Shown: one piece after another, positions 341 to 10,053 of the stretch | How the letters are laid out: each line of letters starts with the position of its first letter | How positions within the stretch are numbered: the stretch's first letter is position 1 | Made by a program: the position numbers and the translations under genes | Notes under the pieces: model-generated | Databases searched by the model: none | What the model was told of the DNA's origin: nothing | Seen by the model: the letters and a program-made list of their open reading frames with translations, nothing else | Virus record (IMG/VR): IMGVR_UViG_2740892213_000005 | Source: a virus | Lineage: Duplodnaviria; Heunggongvirae; Uroviricota; Caudoviricetes | DNA length: 10,053 bases | Strand: one strand, 5' to 3'

Positions 341-1717
341 TCATACGTCAGCCCCTTGTGCATATCGTCTGCCACGCGCAGCAGGTGCATTTGATGCTGT
401 GCAAATCTGTCTGGCTTCATCCTGGTCACATGCAACAAAGTGTCCGTTACAGAACCGCTGGTAAACCGTACCAAGCGAGCCAAAACGGTTTTTCGTCACG
501 ATGATTTCAGCAAATGGCGCGGCGCTACTGTTCTCGTCATATACCGCTTCCCGATAGAGCATGATGATTGAGTCTGCGTCCTGCTCAATGCTTCCTGAAT
601 CACGCAAATCTGCGTTTGTCGGGCGTTTGTTTGGTCGCTTCTCAACATCGCGCGAAAGCTGACTCAGGGAGATAACCGGTGTTTTCAGGTCTTTCGCCAT
701 CGCCTTCAGGCTTCCGGAGATGTGAGCAATTGCGAGGTCGTTGCGGTCTGCTTTCGGCTTCTCAATCAGGCCAAGATAATCCGCCATGATGAGTGAGAGG
801 TTTGGATTTTCCTGTTTGTGCCGTTCTGCGATTGAGCGTATTTCTTCGACCGATAACCGCGAGGCATCGACTACCCATACATCCAAATCTGCAAGCTGAC
901 TCATGCCGTTAGCAACACGTGCCCATCCTTCGTCATCCATCGATGCAGGATTTCGCAGCACGCTAACCGACATCCTCCCGGCGTTGGCAATGCTTCGCTC
1001 TGCAATCTGCAATGCGCTCATTTCCATTGAGAAAATCAACACTCCGCGCCGGACGTCAGAACCAGGAATAACGCGGCTTGCAACGCCTTCGGCAATCTTC
1101 AGAGCCAGTTCGGTTTTCCCCATACCAGGACGAGCAGCGATTATCACCAGGTCTTCCGCGTTCATCCCTCCGGTGATGGCGTCAAGTTCTTCGATTCCGG
1201 TCTTCAGGGTATCTGACTCTTCTCCGTTCCTCAGACGCCTGTCAAGCGTGTCAGTGTAGTCAGTAATGATTTCCCCTAACCGTACCGGTTTAACCTCGTC
1301 ACGGGGCTTTCTGATGGCTGAAAGACGCTTTACAAGTTCATCCATCGCCTGACTCGATGCGTCGATAGTTCCGCTCTGAATTGGTTCACGCATTTCATCC
1401 ATGATTTCCAGCACCAGACGACGGTGATAGTTATCCGCGACCATTCCGGCATATCCCTTCAGGTTTGCGGCACTCGGGCAGTTCTTGCTGGTCATCAGGA
1501 TTGACGTGAAATGCTCCTCTCCGCACGCCTCGGCAACCATCAGCGCGTCGATTAGGTTTCTGTTTCTCGCCTGCTTGCGGATAACCTCGAAGGCTTTCCG
1601 GTAGAGCGGAATTGAAAACGCTTCCGGCTCCAGCGTTGCAAGAACGTCACTGGCGGTTGGAGTTAATCCACCAATCAGCAGGCCACCGATAACGCTCGCT
1701 TCGATATCCTGTTTCAT
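341..1717 (-). CDS. DnaB-family replicative DNA helicase (P22 gene 12-like)
   Basis: 458 aa; N-terminal [13 protein letters not shown] motif, Walker [20 protein letters not shown], and [11 protein letters not shown] identical to the E. coli DnaB motif; ATGA start/stop overlap with the upstream O-like gene. Confidence 0.9.
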
Positions 1718-2661
1718 GCAATCCCCCTGTCTGCAAACTTCCCTTCCCGAACTCCCGTTAACGAATCTTCCCTCAGCAGGTAATCAAAATCAGCCGTCCA
1801 GCCCGTGTCGTTGTCTCCGAAGTAAAACGGCTTGGCCTGATGCACAAACGCCCTGACATACGCTCTGAAACCGTCCACGTTTGGCGTTTTCAGTTGCGGG
1901 ATGATTTTCTTCAGGCGGCGTTTGCGTTTCTCGTTGACCGCAACAGCGTGTGGCAGTCTGTCACCGACTTCGGTGTTGTAGGCGTTCAGGAATGATTCGT
2001 AGTCGATTCGTTCTGCCTTGCGACGTTCAGGTTTAACCTGCCCATCGCCTCCCCCATTGGGGGGTAGGGGGGTATTATTTATATTCTTGTTAATACCTTC
2101 TTGTTCATGATGTGCGGTTGTTTGTGCGGCCTCATGTGCGCTTTCATGTGCGGCATGTGCGCTGAAAGCCGCGCCATTACTGTCTTCGTCATGTGCGGCA
2201 TCATGTGCGGTTGTTTGTGCGGCTTCATGTGCGGGTAAATTGTCCATTTTTTGAGCATATTCATGGTAATTTGTGATGGTGATCACACGACCTTTTTGCT
2301 TCTCTCCATCAATGGAGATCATCCCCTCTTTCACAAAAACCTGAAGCATCCGCTCAACCTGATCACGGCTTGCTGGCTTGCCATGCCTGTCGCATAACTG
2401 AAGACCTAAATCAGCTGCTGTCACAACCAGTTGACCGGGTTGCAGATGCCATTCATGACCTTTGAAATTCGCTTTGTATGGCTTTCTGGCGGCATTCAGG
2501 AGAAGGTTTTCCCACAGGGTGCGAAGATAAACATCTTTCGCCCATGACTGTTTCAGAATGCTCCGGTACAACGGAATGTAACCAGTTTTCTGGTTCTCCA
2601 TCCTGTTGCTCCTGCGCTCGTGTGCGGCGCTGAAATCGTAGATTTTTGCTGTATTGCTCAT
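1714..2661 (-). CDS. O: Replication initiator, lambda O-like (P22 gene 18-like)
   Basis: N-terminus [10 protein letters not shown] resembles lambda O MTNTAKILNF; gene contains the iteron/AT-rich origin; His/Ala-rich repetitive linker is encoded by the iterons. ORF track begins at a GTG at 2664; the ATG at 2661 is preferred by homology. Confidence 0.85.
2051..2100. other. Origin-associated G/C-rich near-palindrome (CCCCCATTGGGGGGTAGGGGGG) plus AT-rich unwinding element (about 2073-2100)
   Basis: AT-rich stretch TATTATTTATATTCTTGTTAATA immediately flanks the iterons, as in lambda ori. Confidence 0.6.
2107..2234. repeat. Origin iterons: about 9 copies of TGTGCG(G/C) at 10-12 bp spacing, including two copies of a roughly 32-bp unit (around 2107-2140 and 2202-2233)
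   Basis: Direct repeats read from the sequence inside the O-like gene; in lambda the O-binding iterons also lie within O. Confidence 0.7.
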
Positions 2662-2663
2662 CA

Positions 2664-2936
2664 CTACCTGCCTTGACGAAAGACCTTAAGAACATCGTTA
2701 AACTGACTTACGGATATGTCTTCTTTGATCAGCCTTTCCAGAAATGCGTTTGGAATGAACGTATATCCCTCCTCTTTTGGTAGAGACGGGAGCAACGCCC
2801 TCGCCTCAGCCTTCAGAAGCTCAGTTCTGGCAACTTTCACAAAAGAGATTTGAGTTCTTTCATCAATGGAACGAAGGAAGCGCAAACGCTTAGCTTCTTT
2901 GTGTGTATCAGGTGGATTAAAGCCTTTGTTTCGCAT
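2664..2936 (-). CDS. Hypothetical protein (90 aa) between cII and O
   Basis: ATG with GAGGTAA Shine-Dalgarno 4 nt upstream; stop overlaps the O start (translational coupling). The track ORF 2664-3104 is the same frame extended upstream. Confidence 0.55.
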   Translation of the reverse strand: MRNKGFNPPDTHKEAKRLRFLRSIDERTQISFVKVARTELLKAEARALLPSLPKEEGYTFIPNAFLERLIKEDISVSQFNDVLKVFRQGR

Positions 2937-3609: not shown

Positions 3610-3638
3610 ATAATACGATATGTACTTTTGGAATGCAA
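3610..3638 (-). promoter_or_regulatory. pR: -35 TTGCAT, 17-bp spacer, -10 TATTAT (minus strand)
   Basis: Located about 25 nt upstream of the cro ATG; an operator dyad overlaps the spacer and -10. Confidence 0.5.
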
Positions 3639-3685
3639 ACAAAAAATACATCTTGTGCATGGATGGTTTTAGTACAGAGCGTAAT
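3612..3685. promoter_or_regulatory. OR operator region: dyads AGTAC-N5-GTAYT at 3612-3626 and AGTAC-N5-GTAAT at 3671-3685
   Basis: The same 15-bp dyad recurs at pL (4492-4506) in the same position relative to -35/-10. Confidence 0.45.
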
Positions 3686-3694
3686 AATAAGGAT

Positions 3695-4354
3695 ATGAAA
3701 ATGAAATGGTATGAACTGGCTAGATCCAGAATGAAAGAACTCGGCATAACTCAAGAGAAGTTAGCTGAAGAGCTTGGTATGACGCAGGGTGGAATTGGTC
3801 ACTGGTTGCGCGGATCTCGTCATCCATCTCTTGACGAGATTGGTGTGGTGTTTAAATACCTTGGTATTGATAACGTCTCATTCAACCACGACGGTACATT
3901 TTCACCTGTTGGCGAATACTCATCTGCCCCCGTTAAAAAACAATATGAGTACCCTGTTTTTTCTCATGTTCAGGCCGGGATGTTCTCGCCTGAGCTTAGA
4001 ACCTTTACCAAAGGCGATGCGGAGAGATGGGTCAGCACAACCAAAAAAGCCAGTGATTGTGCGTTTTGGCTTGAAGTTGAAGGTAATTCCATGACCGCAC
4101 CAACAGGATCCAAGCCAAGCTTTCCTGACGGGATGTTAATTCTCGTTGACCCTGAGCAGGCTGTTGAGCCAGGTGATTTCTGCATAGCCAGACTTGGTGG
4201 TGACGAGTTTACCTTCAAGAAACTGATCAGGGATAGCGGTCAGGTGTTCCTACAACCACTAAACCCGCAATATCCAATGATCCCATGCAATGATAGCTGT
4301 TCCGTAGTAGGGAAAGTTATCGCCAGCCAGTGGCCTGAAGAGACATTTAGTTAA
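3695..4354 (+). CDS. cI: CI-type prophage repressor (S24 peptidase family)
   Basis: C-terminal roughly 130 aa almost identical to the lambda cI C-terminal domain ([38 protein letters not shown]); N-terminal HTH domain differs. Start at 3695 or 3701; the track ORF begins at 3620. Confidence 0.85.
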
Positions 4355-6217: not shown

Positions 6218-7186
6218 ATGAGTGAAGTAACAGATTTAGTTGTTATTGAAAAAGCAAATGCAATGACTGTATTTCAGTCTGCCGACCAGATTGAAGAAAT
6301 CCTTCAAAAGGTTGAACGTGAAGTTATGTCCTTTGTGCCTGATATCACAACGGCAAAGGGCAGAAAGGAGATCGCTTCTCTGGCGTATAAAGTTGCGCAG
6401 ACGAAAACATATCTCGATGGTCTTGGCAAAGACCTTGTTGCTGAACTGAAGGAAATTCCAAAGCTAATTGATGCTAACCGCAAGACAGTGCGCGATCGCC
6501 TTGATGAACTGAAAACCAAGGCGCGCCAGCCTCTTACTGATTATGAGGAAGAACAGGCGCGGATTAAAGCCGAAGAAGAAGCTAAGGCAGCAGCTGAAGC
6601 TCTCGCAAAGCAAATTGAGTATGACCATGAAATAGCTATTTTGATGGATCGCGAATTTGACCGCCAAAGAGAAGAGGCAAGACTCAAAGCGGAGCAGGAA
6701 AAGCGAGAGCATGAAGAACGATTAAAAAGAGAAGCTAAAGAGAAAGCCAGAGCAGAAGCCGAAGCAAAGGCAAAAGCCGAAATTGAAGCAGCAGCAAGGC
6801 GAGAAGCAGAAGCTAAGGCCGCAGCGGAACGTGCAGAGCGTGAACGCATTGAAGCCGAGCAACGAGCACAGCGCGAAGCAAAAGAGGCAGCAGAACGAGC
6901 TGAAAGAGAAAAGCAGGCAGCAATTGAAGCAGAACGCAGAAAAGCACATGAGGAGGCTGAACGAATCCGTCGCGAGGCTGAAGCAAAAGAGCAAGCCAGA
7001 ATAGCAGAAGAAAAAAGAATCAAGGACGAAGAAGAGCGTAGAGCAAAGGATAAAGCTCACCGGAAAGAAGTAAATAACAAAATACTTGCTGACCTTATCA
7101 AGGTTGGCGCATCAGAAGATGTTGCTAAAAATATCATAACAGCCATCGTAAAAGGCGAAGTATTCGCAACAAAAATAACCTACTAA
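6218..7186 (+). CDS. Hypothetical protein (322 aa) with a long E/A/K/R-rich charged helical segment
   Basis: About 100-aa N-terminal region, then a roughly 170-aa highly charged low-complexity stretch (EAEAKAKAEIEAAARREAEAKAAAERAERER...), then a short C-terminal region. GGAGGA Shine-Dalgarno. Confidence 0.75.
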   Translation: MSEVTDLVVIEKANAMTVFQSADQIEEILQKVEREVMSFVPDITTAKGRKEIASLAYKVAQTKTYLDGLGKDLVAELKEIPKLIDANRKTVRDRLDELKTKARQPLTDYEEEQARIKAEEEAKAAAEALAKQIEYDHEIAILMDREFDRQREEARLKAEQEKREHEERLKREAKEKARAEAEAKAKAEIEAAARREAEAKAAAERAERERIEAEQRAQREAKEAAERAEREKQAAIEAERRKAHEEAERIRREAEAKEQARIAEEKRIKDEEERRAKDKAHRKEVNNKILADLIKVGASEDVAKNIITAIVKGEVFATKITY

Positions 7187-7342: not shown

Positions 7343-7479
7343 CCATCAATCACCAGATGCTTCGTGCTGCACAGAACAAAGCAGTAATAGCCAGATTTAT
7401 TGGTGATTCAAAAATGTGGCTTGAAGCAAATAAAGCGATGAAATCAGCTATCAACCTTCCGTGGTATCGCAGGAAATGA
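7327..7479 (+). CDS. kil: Kil-like protein (50 aa)
   Basis: Not in the ORF track. IARFIGDSKMWLEA resembles lambda Kil IATFIGDEKMFREA (recalled); overlaps the cIII 3' end by 16 nt. Confidence 0.55.
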   Translation: MRNEIAINHQMLRAAQNKAVIARFIGDSKMWLEANKAMKSAINLPWYRRK

Positions 7480-7634
7480 GTTTTACAGATAACTGGTCAG
7501 ACGAAGAATTCATTCGTCAGATGAAAGAATTAATCGGTAACGAAGGAGATATTCATGTCACTTGCAACCACAGTGAAGGAGAGCAAGTTACAGAGACGCA
7601 TGTACACGCAGAAAGCTCTCTGGTATCGCCATAA
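7476..7634 (+). CDS. Possible small ORF (52 aa), weakly supported
   Basis: ATGA overlap with the kil stop, but poor Shine-Dalgarno spacing; overlaps the next candidate by 80 nt in another frame. Confidence 0.2.
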   Translation: MSFTDNWSDEEFIRQMKELIGNEGDIHVTCNHSEGEQVTETHVHAESSLVSP

Positions 7635-7725
7635 TGGCGACCGCGAAGGAATGCGGGTATGCCTTAATTTGTCCCGAGTCGAAGTATTAAATCAGCGTTA
7701 TTTCCTTGGGCCGTGTCCATTCTGA
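7555..7725 (+). CDS. Small hypothetical protein (56 aa), in the position of P22 arf upstream of the annealing protein
   Basis: Strong AAGGAGA Shine-Dalgarno 5 nt upstream; ends 9 nt before the next gene. Confidence 0.4.
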   Translation: MSLATTVKESKLQRRMYTQKALWYRHNGDREGMRVCLNLSRVEVLNQRYFLGPCPF

Positions 7726-7733
7726 GGTGAATT

Positions 7734-8441
7734 ATGGATTTGAACAAATTCGATGAGCCATTCAGCCCTGAAGATATCGAATGGCGAATACAGCAAAGCG
7801 GTAAAACACGCGATGGCAAGGTGTGGGCTATGGTGCTGGCTTATGTCACGAACCGGGCAATCATGAAGCGCCTGGACGATGTTTGCGGCAAAGCAGGATG
7901 GCGCAATGAATACCGCGATATTCCCAACAACGGCGGAGTTGAATGCGGCATATCAATCAAGATTGATTCCGAATGGGTAACCAAATGGGATGCTGCTGAA
8001 AACACGCAGGTAGAAGCCGTCAAAGGCGGTCGTTCCGGTGCAATGAAGCGCGCTGCCGTTCAGTGGGGAATCGGTCGGTATCTGTATAACCTTGAGGAAG
8101 GTTTTGCACAAACATCTCTCGATAAAAAGCAGGGATGGCACAGGGCAAAACTCAAGGATGGAACAGGATTTTACTGGCTCCCTCCATCGCTGCCGGGATG
8201 GGCAATCCCAGCATCAGATAACAAACCATCACCAGAAAATACCAACCAGAAATCTCCATCGGTTGACTGCGAACAAATCCTGAAAGACTTCAGCGATTAT
8301 GCGTCAACAGAAACTGACAAGAAAAAACTCATCGAGCGTTATCAGCGTGACTGGCAATTAATGGCTGGCAACGAGGAGGCGCAGGCTAAATGCGTTCAGG
8401 TAATGAACATCAGAGTTAACGAACTAAAACAGGCGGCATAA
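7734..8441 (+). CDS. Single-strand annealing protein, Rad52/Sak-type
   Basis: Motif KGGRSGAMKRAAVQWGIGRYLY is typical of Rad52-like phage annealing proteins; GAGGTGA Shine-Dalgarno; stop abuts the ssb start. Confidence 0.85.
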   Translation: MDLNKFDEPFSPEDIEWRIQQSGKTRDGKVWAMVLAYVTNRAIMKRLDDVCGKAGWRNEYRDIPNNGGVECGISIKIDSEWVTKWDAAENTQVEAVKGGRSGAMKRAAVQWGIGRYLYNLEEGFAQTSLDKKQGWHRAKLKDGTGFYWLPPSLPGWAIPASDNKPSPENTNQKSPSVDCEQILKDFSDYASTETDKKKLIERYQRDWQLMAGNEEAQAKCVQVMNIRVNELKQAA

Positions 8442-8957
8442 ATGGCAAGCAGAGGCGTAAATAAGGTGATCATTATTGGTCGCCTTGGGCATGATCCAGA
8501 AATCAGATATTCACCATCAGGAACGGCATTTGCAAACCTTACCGTTGCTACGTCAGAACAATGGCGTGATAAGAAAACTGGAGAGCAAAAGGAGCAGACG
8601 GAGTGGCACCGCGTGGTAATGAGCGGGAAACTGGCAGAAATTGCCAGCGAATATCTGCGAAAAGGCTCTGAGGTTTATCTTGAAGGCAAATTGCGGACAA
8701 GAAAATGGCAGGATCAAAGCGGACAGGATCGGTTCACTACCGAAGTCATCGTGGGCGTTGGTGGAACCATGCAAATGCTTGGTGGCAAGCAAGGAGGCAA
8801 TGAACAGTCTTCACCTCAGCGAAATAATGGTCAGCAACAAAGACAGCAACCTCAGCAGCAGGGAAATCACAGCGAACCACCTATGGATTTTGACGACGAT
8901 ATCCCCTTTGCACCAGTAACTCTCCCCTTCCCTCGTCACGCTATTCACGCAATTTAA
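8442..8957 (+). CDS. ssb: Single-stranded DNA-binding protein with a 15-aa extension beyond the usual DDDIPF tip
   Basis: OB-fold N-terminus ([37 protein letters not shown]), Gly/Gln-rich linker, acidic [11 protein letters not shown] motif followed by [15 protein letters not shown]. Confidence 0.9.
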
Positions 8958-8965
8958 GGACTTAC

Positions 8966-9514
8966 ATGAATCACTTGATGGTTGACCTTGAAACAATGGG
9001 CAACGGGCCATACGCGCCAGTTATTTCTATTGGGGCGGTATTCTTTGACCCGAATACCGGAGAAACAGGAGAAGAGTTCTCGGTAAATATCTCGCTTGAA
9101 TCATCAATGCGATATCGAGCGCGTCCTGACGCTTCAACGATTTTATGGTGGCTGGAACAGAGTGAAGAAGCCAGAAAATCGCTAACCAGCAACACTCAGG
9201 AGCTTTCAACGGCTCTTTCATGGTTATCTGAATTCATCATAAAGAACGCTAACCACAAATTCGTTCAGGTTTGGGGGAATGGAGCATCATTTGACTGCGT
9301 TATTCTCCGAAACAGTTATTCGCTGACAGGGCAGCCAGTTCCATGGCAGTGGTGGAATGACCGCGACGTAAGAACAATCGTCGAGCTTGGAAAGGTAATA
9401 GGATTCAACCCTAAGCGAGATATGCCATTCAAAGGAACTCGCCACAACGCGCTTGATGATGCCATCCACCAAGCCAAATACGTTTCAGCGATCTGGAAAA
9501 AGTTAGCTAAATAA
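8966..9514 (+). CDS. DEDDh-type 3'-5' exonuclease (DnaQ-like fold)
   Basis: MVDLETMG (Exo I motif), HNALDDA (Exo III motif); AAGGA Shine-Dalgarno. Confidence 0.8.
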   Translation: MNHLMVDLETMGNGPYAPVISIGAVFFDPNTGETGEEFSVNISLESSMRYRARPDASTILWWLEQSEEARKSLTSNTQELSTALSWLSEFIIKNANHKFVQVWGNGASFDCVILRNSYSLTGQPVPWQWWNDRDVRTIVELGKVIGFNPKRDMPFKGTRHNALDDAIHQAKYVSAIWKKLAK

Positions 9515-9530
9515 TCAACAGGAGAAAAAC

Positions 9531-9824
9531 ATGCCAGCGCCTTTGTATGGTGCGGATGACGCGCGCCGCTGTTCCGGCAATTCCGTATCGGAGGTGCTGG
9601 ATAAATTCAGAAAAAACTACGACCAGATAATGTCGCTACCGCAGGAAACGAAAGAGGAAAAGGAATTTCGCCACTGTATATGGCTTGCAGAGAAAGAAGA
9701 GCGCGAGCGAATTTACCAGACATCAATCCGACCATTCCGCAAAGCCACATATACCCACTTCCCTGAAATTGACCCGCGCCTGCGTAATTACCGCTCACGC
9801 TATGGCGCTATCAGTAATGACTGA
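9531..9824 (+). CDS. Hypothetical protein (97 aa)
   Basis: ORF track; AGGAGA Shine-Dalgarno upstream. No family recognised. Confidence 0.6.
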
Positions 9825-9834
9825 GGAATTTACC

Positions 9835-10002
9835 ATGAGAGGACTTGCATACAATCCCGGCATTCTTCCGGCAGAAATGATTATTCGCCAACGCGTAAAG
9901 CCAATGCCATCGAGAGAGGAATTGCTTAAGAGAAATTCTTTTCCATCAGTGAATCAAAACAAATATCTGAATGCGATGTGGCGCAAAGGAGGCAAACAGT
10001 GA
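9835..10002 (+). CDS. Hypothetical protein (55 aa)
   Basis: ATG at 9835 with GAGGAA Shine-Dalgarno; the track ORF 9685-10002 is the same frame extended upstream through the previous gene. Confidence 0.5.
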
Positions 10003-10053
10003 GCGAAATTAATTACCAGGCACTGCGTGAGGTGGCGGAACGTGCAATTCCAG
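9999..10053 (+). CDS. Start of a further gene (GTG start, runs off the right edge)
   Basis: AAGGAGG Shine-Dalgarno 6 nt upstream of a GTG that overlaps the preceding TGA stop; reads [18 protein letters not shown]... Confidence 0.4.

Follow-up and report, generated by a model that had tools for sequence, protein, structure and literature searches.

The genes at positions 7734-9824 of the analysed DNA (10,053 nucleotides; hereafter the window) form a complete early-left recombination (Rec) module of a lambdoid phage or prophage of E. coli. Exactly four genes make up the module, for a single-strand annealing protein (SAP), an SSB, a nuclease and an anti-RecBCD protein; the successive gaps between them measure 0, 8 and 16 nt. 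The arrangement is not new and corresponds to a published recombination cluster of lambda-like E. coli phages. The nuclease gene is an optional cassette in near-identical modules. The 5'-3' cutting that appears to be missing is most likely supplied by the host RecBCD enzyme, reprogrammed by the product of the adjoining abc2 gene. The explanation that accounts best for these data, and to which about an even chance is given, is an ES18/epsilon34-type module with resection by Abc2-RecBCD, annealing by SSB and SAP, and an accessory DEDDh nuclease acting on 3' ends.

Gene content and layout of the module

The coordinates of all features are compiled in Table 1. The three ORFs named in the original prediction were recovered at the same positions, and their predicted identities as Rad52/Sak-type annealing protein, SSB and DEDDh nuclease were correct according to Pfam, with E-values far beyond chance. 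The annealing protein matched PF04098 (Rad52_Rad22; E 5e-26, 91.9 bits at a cut-off of 20.3) with residues 4-136 on profile positions 7-153 of 153, as well as phrog_1097 (E 3.5e-130), and carries the PGAP name 'Rad52/Rad22 family DNA repair protein'. A sequence search of the PDB with this protein yielded no solved relative (best E 0.1, an unrelated protein). The SSB matched PF00436 (E 3.7e-38). Its residues 1-156 correspond to a canonical bacterial-type SSB ending in DFDDDIPF, with NCBIfam model PRK09010 aligned to the model end, and both the OB domain and the linker match the profiles. The DFDDDIPF motif is internal and is followed by an extra peptide of 15 residues (residues 157-171; nt 8910-8954). 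A connection of this extension with the nuclease was considered and rejected, as the extension is equally present in modules without the nuclease. NCBIfam models were not found for the nuclease, the annealing protein or Abc2.

Table 1. Features of the recombination module and its flanks in the window
Feature	Position	Strand	Size and assignment
Small ORF, HK97 gp42.1-like / Sf6 gp30-like	7461..7634	+	57 aa; phrog_2123, E 9.2e-42
Small ORF, Sf6 gp29-like / HK97 gp42-like	7555..7725	+	56 aa; phrog_1723, E 9.4e-36
Rad52/Sak-type single-strand annealing protein	7734..8441	+	235 aa; Pfam PF04098, phrog_1097
Phage SSB	8442..8957	+	171 aa; PF00436
Optional gene-sized cassette	8958..9517	+	~560 nt; window aligned with loci L165 and L178
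DEDDh (DnaQ-fold) exonuclease, DexA/Rv2179c family, predicted 3'-5'	8966..9514	+	182 aa; PF16473
Abc2 (anti-RecBCD protein 2), RecBCD modifier	9531..9824	+	97 aa; PF11043
DUF2737 small protein	9802..10002	+	PF10930, E 1.6e-31

The tight packing that had been claimed was confirmed: the stop codon of the annealing-protein gene (TAA, 8439-8441) directly abuts the ATG of ssb (8442), and the ssb stop codon is separated by 8 nt from the ATG of the exonuclease gene, ahead of which an AAGGA Shine-Dalgarno-like sequence is located. The exonuclease stop codon is followed after 16 nt, including an AGGAG sequence, by the ATG of abc2 (9531). The original prediction ended one gene early and missed abc2 as the fourth member of the module.

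The four-gene block is located downstream of cI, N-like and kil genes on the same strand. No promoter- or terminator-like sites above chance were found on the + strand between 7500 and 10053. The first small ORF upstream of the block occupies the slot of arf in P22, and a counterpart is annotated in mEp235 and Sf6. It is overlapped in another frame by the second small ORF, a type that immediately precedes the annealing protein in 9 of the surveyed loci. The DUF2737 gene often lies 3' of abc2 and is annotated in mEp235 and Sf6; no part in recombination is known for it. Homologues of lambda Exo, RecE, Bet, RecT and Gam were not detected among all six-frame ORFs of the window (phmmer, E 1e-5). 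A panel of 13 proteins matched the window only with Rad52SAP, SSB1 and Abc2, and the DEDDh protein is the sole nuclease.

Lambdoid Rec modules with DnaQ-like nucleases have been described by Zheng, Casjens, Davidson, Amundsen and Smith (Genome Res 2025; PMC12315714), who note the same polarity oddity of the DnaQ-like 3'-5' nuclease and whose module assignment agrees independently with the one made here. Their 'anti-RecBCD + SSB + nuclease + SAP' type has ES18 as prototype, and epsilon34 carries a DnaQ-like nuclease (PMC12315714). The window shares with this type the four functions, the tight packing and the place in the early left operon, and no structural difference was found. The same four genes are present in epsilon34, g341c, mEp235 and mEpX2 at 85-92% DNA identity to the window; for mEp235 and mEpX2, which carry the nuclease gene, E. 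coli K-12 is the recorded host. Among 5,426 complete E. coli genomes, 140, including that of E. coli W, have this four-gene block in their annotation.

The order small ORF(s), annealing protein, SSB/Abc1 slot and abc2 is common to the window, to arf-erf-abc1-abc2 of P22 (Murphy 2000 and Poteete, as cited in PMC9836394) and to hkaM-sak4-ssb-abc2 of HK620 (Hutinet et al. 2018, PMC5928155). The likeness extends to Abc2, which is ~90% identical to the P22 protein, to resection that would be borrowed from RecBCD and, in HK620, to a cognate SSB adjoining the annealing protein. The window differs in its Rad52/Sak-type annealing protein (PF04098, versus Erf, PF04404, in P22 and Sak4 in HK620), in its bacterial-type rather than HK620-type SSB, and in the additional DEDDh gene between ssb and abc2. 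The lambda Red (Exo/Beta/Gam) and Rac RecE/RecT systems are likewise early-left modules built around an annealing protein of the Rad52 superfamily. However, they encode their own 5'-3' dsDNA exonuclease, RecE being composed of PF06630 and the PDDEXK domain PF12684, whereas the window nuclease differs from it in fold and is expected to have the opposite polarity.

Sequence and fold of the exonuclease

The motifs on which the DEDDh assignment had been based, MVDLETMG and HNALDDA, are present as residues 5-12 and 160-166. The protein matches PF16473 (Rv2179c-like; E 2.6e-73) over its full length. All three exonuclease motifs are intact (Exo I, DxE; Exo II, D; Exo III, Hx4D), and the DEDDh residues D7, E9, D110, H160 and D165 show no variation among 19 homologues with 56-87% identity to the window protein. 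The best Foldseek match of an AlphaFold2 model (mean pLDDT 92, pTM 0.89) was T4 DexA (8KEN/8KEL; TM 0.80, E 2e-12, 25-26% identity), followed by RNase T (E 4e-6), REXO2/Orn, ERI-type enzymes, Cap18 and ExoI (4HCB, E 3e-4). DexA was also the sole PDB entry matched by the nuclease sequence (8KEL; phmmer E 9e-14 with the single sequence, 2e-15 with the profile). From family membership, 3'-5' polarity is expected of an intact DEDDh enzyme that has DexA as its closest solved relative in sequence and fold, and the opposite polarity proposed originally stands as such an expectation.

DexA is a DNase that prefers ssDNA over dsDNA (PMC12153337), and the relevant part of the same source does not describe T4 dexA as belonging to a recombination module. 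The DEDDh residues of DexA are conserved in the window protein, and W152 of DexA, a residue linked like D169 to 5hmC recognition, aligns with the nearly invariant W130. The window protein is shorter (182 aa versus 227 aa) and several DexA loops are missing; D90 of DexA, a tetramer contact, falls in a DexA-specific insertion. D169 of DexA, which aligns at F147/N148 with an uncertainty of ~1 residue, does not appear to be conserved, the window protein having Asn versus Asp in the family consensus. The nuclease is conserved in Escherichia, Salmonella, Klebsiella, Citrobacter, Kluyvera, Pantoea, Photorhabdus and Providencia, with identities down to ~55-67%.

ExoI is a DnaQ-fold 3'-5' ssDNA exonuclease that recognises the free C-terminal carboxylate of SSB, and it is reportedly recruited through the C-terminal DDDIPF tip. 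The window resembles the E. coli pair of SSB and ExoI in that an SSB gene adjoins the gene of a predicted DnaQ-fold 3'-5' exonuclease. The free C-terminal carboxylate for ExoI-type recognition is absent, since DDDIPF of the window SSB is internal and followed by 15 residues.

Distribution and genomic context of the nuclease gene

The extent of the optional cassette was determined by alignment of the window with two further loci. The cassette starts right after the ssb stop codon and ends just before the ribosome-binding site of abc2. It is missing from the otherwise near-identical locus L165 and replaced by an HNH cassette in locus L178. Occupancy was counted in 79 loci whose Abc2 has an identity of 97% or more. 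The order SSB-Abc2 was found 17 times, SSB-exonuclease-Abc2 13 times (plus two truncated copies), SSB-HNH-Abc2 five times and SSB-HNH-exonuclease-Abc2 twice, so that 17 of 39 modules with this SSB type (SSB-1) have neither nuclease nor HNH gene. The isolated phages HK75, IME10, N7 and ECP1 contain a near-identical module without the nuclease. Because the gene is present or absent in near-identical modules, the nuclease is dispensable for the module. A protein named 'SSB' that clusters with the nuclease (P0144) was considered as a natural SSB-nuclease fusion and rejected; it is a deletion chimera without the DxE motif.

The nuclease family comprises 3,728 proteins and at least 576 IMG/VR loci. 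For the context survey, 155 loci with relatives were informative. Neighbours were assigned by a distance-scored walk, and nuclease domains were grouped by average-linkage clustering on p-distances. The gene was located after SSB in a recombination module in 31 of the 155 loci (class A), stood alone outside such a module in 87, with 73 of these beside xis/int, and was fused to the RecE N-terminal domain in 37. The order annealing protein, SSB, (HNH), exonuclease was kept in all 31 class A loci, with annealing proteins of four sequence types and three families (Rad52/Sak, 19 loci; Sak4, nine; Erf, three) and two unrelated kinds of SSB (PF00436-type, 26 loci; HK620-type, five). Both SSB types preceding the nuclease in module-type loci have an acidic-aromatic C-terminal motif (DDDIPF or DDxFxPF-like), and no co-variation of nuclease sequence with SSB type was seen among the clustered nuclease domains. 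The constant position despite exchange of annealing protein and SSB bears out the assignment of the nuclease to the recombination module.

The sequence subfamilies of the nuclease coincide with genomic context, and the subfamily of the window protein (at least ~62% pairwise identity) holds 30 of the 31 class A loci. As a refuting outcome, the original prediction had named a nuclease unlinked to recombination genes in most relatives. This applies to the family as a whole, with its 87 stand-alone loci, but not to the window's own subfamily, which stays linked.

In the RecE-N fusions, the DEDDh domain is found in place of the PD-(D/E)XK 5'-3' nuclease domain, which ties the nuclease domain to DNA-end processing. 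No annealing protein was detected in the 6-kb flanks of these loci. The 73 stand-alone loci beside xis/int match the DnaQ-type genes near int and outside modules of Zheng et al. (PMC12315714). In many of them, a YfbR-like 5'-deoxynucleotidase gene and DNA-modification genes are close by. DUF2303, the YfbR-like gene and other frequent stand-alone neighbours were considered as hidden recombination genes and rejected; PHROGs and Pfam assigned these neighbours as nucleotide phosphatase, ParB-like, queuine-transferase-like, or gave no function. The cassette boundaries, the near 1:1 presence and absence in near-identical modules, the coincidence of subfamily with context and the RecE-N::DEDDh fusions are not reported by Zheng et al., who describe 'RecE-2' proteins as being without nuclease domain (PMC12315714).

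Some general observations point away from a role in the module. Most family members lie outside Rec modules, and the Pfam family of the nuclease, PF16473, is named after an exoribonuclease, Rv2179c. An anti-T4 role has been assigned by experiment to an E. coli DexA homologue (PMC12153337).

Resection polarity and candidate roles of the nuclease

Abc2 matched PF11043 with residues 1-97 of 97 (E 4.5e-63). The match to P22 Abc2, whose structure was solved on RecBCD (PDB 8B1T chain A; E 2.7e-57, 97/97 residues), spans the RecC-binding helices (residues 3-66), and P68 is conserved. The 5'-strand exonuclease activity of RecBCD is upregulated when Abc2 is bound, which has been proposed as a source of ssDNA for phage recombination (PMC9836394, PMC5928155). 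With Abc2 encoded next door and the proposed reprogramming of RecBCD for 5'-strand resection, the polarity puzzle is largely gone.

As judged from the work on P22, Abc2 would bind RecC of the host RecBCD enzyme, which would then ignore Chi and degrade mainly the 5' strand, leaving 3' single-stranded tails. A module acting through RecBCD modified in this manner would not be without 5'-3' resection activity. Family membership and the HK620 precedent suggest that these tails are coated by the phage SSB and paired with complementary ssDNA by the Rad52/Sak-type annealing protein. In experiments with sak4-ssb-abc2 of HK620, SSB and not Abc2 stimulated oligonucleotide recombineering (PMC5928155). The weakest step concerns the nuclease, a small DexA-like 3'-5' DNA exonuclease that may act on the free 3' ends of intermediates coated by SSB. 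Trimming of non-homologous 3' flaps or overhangs would be one possible task once annealing has taken place; another would be to blunt 3'-tailed ends for loading of RecBCD-Abc2. Accessory 3'-end trimming, and not service as a resection partner, is the favoured role. Since annealing recombination is usually counteracted by 3'-5' ssDNA exonucleases of the host (Lovett 2011, cited by Zheng et al., PMC12315714), and a xonA mutation reportedly enhances RecET assembly (PMC13048471), a helper role of the nuclease is not the default expectation.

A function as an anti-phage weapon is unlikely. The DexA-like nuclease would selectively degrade modified DNA (e.g. 5hmC) of superinfecting or co-infecting phages, as has been proposed for the E. 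coli homologue EcD ('HREX'), and the Rec module would merely be a convenient slot. When plasmid-borne, the E. coli DexA homologue is reported to confer protection against T4 and to digest T4 DNA while leaving unmodified dsDNA undigested, and its spread over Escherichia, Citrobacter and Klebsiella (PMC12153337) matches the family studied here. The near-invariance of W130 (DexA W152), the optional, cassette-like nature of the gene and the location of most relatives in an accessory region beside xis/int are also consistent with this function. However, the gene lies 8 nt after ssb in the repressed early-left (pL) operon and has no promoter of its own, and because of this sequence context expression in a lysogen is not expected. 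The Asn that aligns, to within ~1 residue, with DexA D169, where the family consensus has Asp, would also argue against it, and the best PADLOC match, a Cas-associated DEDDh model (E 2e-4), was weak and not convincing. Among the members listed for five clusters, that of the window protein and four related ones, EcD (HAK9828821.1) was not found. The constant position of the window's subfamily after SSB would be left unexplained.

The same strict position after ssb is not explained by a function in nucleic-acid turnover outside recombination, which is somewhat less probable still. The nuclease would either break down fragments of host DNA or oligonucleotides to mononucleotides, the classical role of DexA, or act on RNA from the 3' end as an exoribonuclease or nanoRNase in the manner of Rv2179c, Orn and RNase T. 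The naming of the Pfam family for an exoribonuclease, the second-tier fold matches to RNase T, Orn/REXO2 and ERI-type enzymes, and the YfbR-like 5'-deoxynucleotidase and DNA-modification genes near many stand-alone xis/int loci are in line with turnover, and a scavenging role of DexA is documented (PMC12153337). In contrast, the DNase DexA is closest by a wide margin (Foldseek E 2e-12 versus 4e-6 for RNase T) and the only PDB entry matched by sequence, and scavenging would be of little use to a temperate phage without a known programme of host-DNA degradation.

On the model drawn from the original prediction, the DEDDh nuclease would be a dedicated resection partner, a counterpart of lambda Exo or RecE with reversed polarity that produces 5' tails for the Rad52/Sak-type protein. 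This is improbable. In its favour, the position of the nuclease after ssb is kept across the window's subfamily despite exchange of annealing proteins and SSBs, the same domain replaces a 5'-3' nuclease domain on the RecE-N scaffold in 37 loci, and the epsilon34 gene is treated as a legitimate module member by Zheng et al. (PMC12315714). However, the claim that the nuclease stands in for a 5'-3' exonuclease could not be upheld: the adjoining Abc2 already accounts for resection, the nuclease is optional among the 79 loci, and near-identical modules work without it (17 of 39 SSB-1 modules as well as HK75, IME10, N7 and ECP1). The ssDNA preference of DexA (PMC12153337) is unlike that of a processive dsDNA resection enzyme, and the RecE-N fusions were without a detectable annealing protein in their 6-kb flanks.

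Persistence of the cassette as a passenger, selfish or neutral, at an intergenic site that tolerates insertion, like the neighbouring HNH gene and without benefit to the module, would fit the clean indel boundaries, the patchy distribution among near-identical modules, the co-occurrence with the probably mobile HNH gene and the caution urged by Zheng et al. on mobile nuclease genes (PMC12315714), but it is very improbable, as the catalytic residues are invariant and protein and position are kept across eight genera down to ~55-67% identity, which indicates purifying selection on an active enzyme. We know of no homing mechanism for a DEDDh exonuclease.

Beyond the accessory 3'-end trimming favoured here, a more general possibility is left open by the constant position after SSB amid exchange of partners and by the domain replacement on the RecE-N scaffold. 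The DexA-like DEDDh domain might represent a second route of DNA-end processing, with reverse polarity, in phage annealing recombination; this is regarded as doubtful, slightly more so than a function in turnover. If both observations reflect function, these phages would combine two activities, RecBCD-Abc2 for resection of the 5' strand and a nuclease coupled to SSB for 3' ends. The RecE-N fusions would rely entirely on 3'-5' resection, and the surviving strand and the junction trimming of recombinants would change.

A small, testable puzzle is thereby defined: the subfamily keeps a predicted 3'-5' nuclease beside SSB, although host 3'-5' ssDNA exonucleases normally depress annealing recombination. 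The role of the nuclease could matter for recombineering toolkits that consist of an annealing protein and its SSB. Knowledge of this role would also help to choose between a recombination and an anti-phage ('HREX') reading of a widespread prophage protein family.

Gene content of the early-left region

The window, 10 kb long, derives from a lambdoid E. coli phage or prophage, of which it covers the immunity, replication and early-left region. Downstream of the cI-type gene, the plus strand carries an N-like region, an Nmad5-domain gene, an Sf6 gp33-like gene, kil and the recombination genes, in this order. The Nmad5 gene belongs to the early-left operon and is flanked by the N-like region and the gp33-like gene. 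No Pfam match was obtained for the gp33-like protein; its long middle part is rich in Glu, Lys, Ala and Arg and coiled-coil-like, which accounts for the strongest AT skew of the window (0.58, 6501-7000). Within the O-like gene, several copies of a motif with a period of ~12 nt (...CATGTGCGG...) at 2104-2246 encode a His/Ala-rich protein repeat, and these copies are candidate origin iterons resembling those of lambda O.

Features of the window
Feature	Position	Strand	Match
DnaB-like helicase	341-1717	-	
O-like initiator	1714-2664	-	
cI-type repressor	3620-4354	+	
Nmad5 (nucleotide modification associated domain 5) protein, 227 aa	5362-6045	+	PF18757, E 1.7e-69; phrog_1965, without assigned function
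Sf6 gp33-like protein, 322 aa	6218-7186	+	PHROG families without assigned function
Small ORF	7461-7634	+	Own PHROG family, E 9e-42
Small ORF	7555-7725	+	Own PHROG family, E 9e-36
Annealing protein, Rad52/Sak-type	7734-8441	+	Rad52_Rad22 PF04098, E 5e-26
SSB	8442-8957	+	PF00436, E 3.7e-38
DEDDh nuclease, Rv2179c-like family	8966-9514	+	PF16473, full length, E 2.6e-73
Abc2, 97 codons	9531-9824	+	PF11043, full length, E 4.5e-63

The original prediction had described a module of a Rad52/Sak-type annealing protein, an SSB and a 3'-5' DEDDh exonuclease. All three ORFs were found exactly where predicted, and Pfam matches confirmed their identities. The nuclease motifs quoted in support were real, with D7, E9, D110, H160 and D165 invariant among 19 homologues. 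The packing was as tight as described: the stop of the annealing protein gene abuts the ssb start, and 8 nt separate ssb from the nuclease gene. Co-transcription of the module from pL would be the simplest reading, since promoter- and terminator-like sites on the plus strand from 7500 to 10053 did not exceed chance level.

From 7300 to the window end (2.75 kb), identity was 92% to phages mEp235 and mEpX2 and 86% to the Salmonella phages epsilon34 and g341c; the four-gene block 7734-9824 matched several prophages at 98.8-99.6% identity, among them those of E. coli EC3 and E. coli W. The two small ORFs in front of this block are read in different frames and share 80 nt; mEp235 and Sf6 have annotated counterparts of each. 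They hold the place of P22 arf. In other modules with the nuclease behind SSB, a true Arf (PF17585) is found there.

Abc2 and the optional nuclease cassette

A fourth gene, abc2, which the original prediction had missed, starts 16 nt past the nuclease stop. Its product shares ~90% identity with P22 Abc2 as solved on RecBCD (8B1T, E 2.7e-57), and P68 is conserved. P22 Abc2 binds RecC; in the resulting complex Chi is no longer heeded and exonuclease activity on the 5' strand is raised; RecBCD-Abc2 has been proposed as the source of ssDNA for the phage recombinase (PMC9836394; PMC5928155). Oligonucleotide recombineering in HK620 is stimulated by the cognate SSB but not by Abc2 (PMC5928155). Neither P22 (arf-erf-abc1-abc2) nor HK620 (hkaM-sak4-ssb-abc2) has an exonuclease of its own, and the window shows this layout plus one gene. 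Homologues of lambda Exo, RecE, Bet, RecT and Gam were sought in the window and none was present. By analogy with the P22 and HK620 layouts and given Abc2, the module is therefore most probably not short of 5'-3' resection activity and would borrow that of the host.

Alignment of the window with a nuclease-less module (locus L165) revealed a single clean block of difference of ~560 nt (8958-9517), an insertion in the window that begins immediately behind the ssb stop and extends almost to the Shine-Dalgarno sequence of abc2. The content of this slot was counted in 79 IMG/VR loci with an Abc2 at least 97% identical to that of the window. SSB was followed directly by Abc2 in 17 loci, by the nuclease in 13 (plus 2 truncated), by an HNH gene in 5, and by HNH and nuclease genes in 2; an HK620-type SSB preceded Abc2 in 4. 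In the remaining 36, SSB and nuclease were undetected and ~420 nt before abc2 were unassigned, probably representing abc1 as in P22/ST104. Among isolated phages, mEp235, mEpX2, epsilon34, g341c and CurroJimenez have the nuclease, Sf6 has the HNH gene, and the slot is empty in HK75, IME10, N7 and ECP1. The nuclease is thus dispensable for a working module, because near-identical modules and isolated phages occur without it.

The window SSB runs 15 residues (157-171, nt 8910-8954) beyond the canonical DFDDDIPF tip, and the extension occurs whether or not a module has the nuclease. Host SSB partners would be expected to bind weakly to a DDDIPF motif in this internal position. In Sf6-type modules (L002:4626-5105, a surveyed relative; Sf6 gp26) the SSB ends in ...DDSDIPF and a 16-residue peptide closes the downstream HNH endonuclease, which suggests that the HNH cassette inserted within the ssb 3' end and captured the old tail.

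Distribution of the nuclease family

The neighbours of the best 80 IMG/VR loci and the best 80 from one genome per GTDB species were classified; after omission of 5 loci with too little upstream sequence, this sample, biased to close relatives, comprised 155 informative loci. The nuclease followed SSB in a recombination module in 31 (class A), stood alone within three genes of excisionase/integrase, often behind Ead/Ea22-like genes, in 73 (class B), stood alone in another context in 14 (class B2), and was the C-terminal domain in larger proteins of 690-870 aa in 37 (class C). A panel recombination gene lay within 6 kb in only one of the 73 class B loci.

Average-linkage clustering gave nuclease-domain subfamilies that coincide with genomic context: 30 of the 31 class A proteins grouped with the window in a single cluster of at least ~62% identity, and class C clusters were separate. 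Gene order is conserved in class A (annealing protein, SSB, sometimes HNH, then nuclease). The annealing protein varied between Rad52/Sak (19 loci), Sak4 (9) and Erf (3); the SSB was bacterial-type in 26 and of the unrelated HK620 type in 5, both types carrying an acidic-aromatic C-terminal motif; and Abc2 came next in 20. The nuclease sequence did not co-vary with SSB type. The proposed linkage to recombination therefore held for the window's subfamily, stably placed behind SSB, but not for the family at large, which is found mostly outside such modules and is not a recombination-module family.

Stand-alone relatives near xis/int (e.g. L043, L060, L065, L037) are often preceded by a conserved series of phrog_204, DUF2303 and a YfbR-like 5'-deoxynucleotidase, then Ea22-like genes; genes of the ParB-like, methyltransferase or queuine-tRNA-ribosyltransferase-like kind are present as well in some of these loci. 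Judged by gene content, this neighbourhood is one of nucleotide metabolism or DNA modification rather than recombination. Four loci contain an enterobacterial-type prophage under the titles Actinomycetes MAG (L083), Chryseobacterium sp. (L089), Geobacteraceae MAG (L118) and Veillonella parvula MAG (L139), with nucleases 98%, 77%, 59% and 58% identical to that of the window; contamination or mis-binning is likely.

Class C proteins match Rac RecE residues ~6-591 over their first 400-600 residues (phmmer E 1e-26 to 1e-194). They combine PF06630 with PF16473, whereas E. coli RecE is PF06630 + a PDDEXK domain; the 3'-5' DEDDh domain thus replaces the 5'-3' nuclease domain of RecE. About a quarter of the surveyed relatives have this fusion: L139 (4108-6552, 815 aa; match to RecE 50-591, E 1e-194, PF06630), L136, L137, L155, L127 and a further 32 loci. 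These genes lie directly upstream of xis/int, and RecT, Bet, Erf, Sak and Sak4 were not detected within 6 kb. PHROGs already contains RecE-N::DEDDh families, named 'exonuclease'; a literature search found no paper on the swap.

Likely substrate and role of the nuclease

T4 DexA (8KEL/8KEN) was the only sequence relative with a solved structure (E 9e-14 with the single sequence, 2e-15 with the family profile). It was also the best fold match (TM 0.80, E 2e-12) of a confident AlphaFold2 model (pLDDT 92), followed by RNase T, Orn/REXO2, Cap18 and ExoI, none with an E-value better than 4e-6. The T4 enzyme is a 3'-5' exodeoxyribonuclease with a preference for ssDNA (PMC12153337). Because the closest relative by sequence and fold is a DNase, DNA is a more likely substrate than RNA, despite the family name 'exoribonuclease'.

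While the observation was confirmed, its interpretation was supported only in part: the optional presence of the nuclease and the adjacent Abc2 argue against a dedicated resection partner. A serious rival is a role in phage-phage conflict, by analogy with the E. coli DexA homologue EcD, reported in 2025 to digest T4 DNA while sparing unmodified dsDNA and to confer protection against T4; the taxonomic spread of 'bacterial DexA homologues' in that study matches this prophage family (PMC12153337). However, the gene lies in the repressed pL operon and, according to the sequence scan, lacks its own promoter, and the residue that aligns, to within about one position, with DexA D169 is non-acidic. 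EcD was not among the members listed for the cluster of the window protein and four related clusters.

An accessory role is favoured, in which the nuclease would trim 3' flaps or overhangs on SSB-coated ssDNA; alternatively, it may blunt ends for RecBCD-Abc2 entry. For such a putative nuclease-SSB coupling, the nearest mechanistic analogue is E. coli SSB with exonuclease I. Against a helper role, Zheng et al. note that host 3'-5' ssDNA exonucleases usually reduce annealing recombination (PMC12315714), and another report describes enhanced RecET-mediated assembly in a xonA mutant (PMC13048471).

The gene arrangement is already known, since it was described by Zheng, Casjens, Davidson, Amundsen and Smith and since this set of four genes carries PGAP annotation in 140 of the 5,426 complete E. 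coli genomes. In their analysis of 325 lambdoid genomes, tight packing made the epsilon34 DnaQ gene 'very likely' a legitimate module member, further DnaQ-type genes were placed near int, outside modules, and the unexpected polarity of the nuclease was already remarked on (Genome Res 2025, PMC12315714). Modest additions made here are the limits of the cassette, the roughly 1:1 ratio of near-identical modules with and lacking the nuclease, the agreement of subfamily with genomic context, and the RecE-N::DEDDh domain swap. Because the subfamily is stably placed behind SSB and the class C domain sits on a recombination-exonuclease scaffold, the pattern fits an enzyme acting on DNA 3' ends of recombination intermediates, and a random passenger less well.
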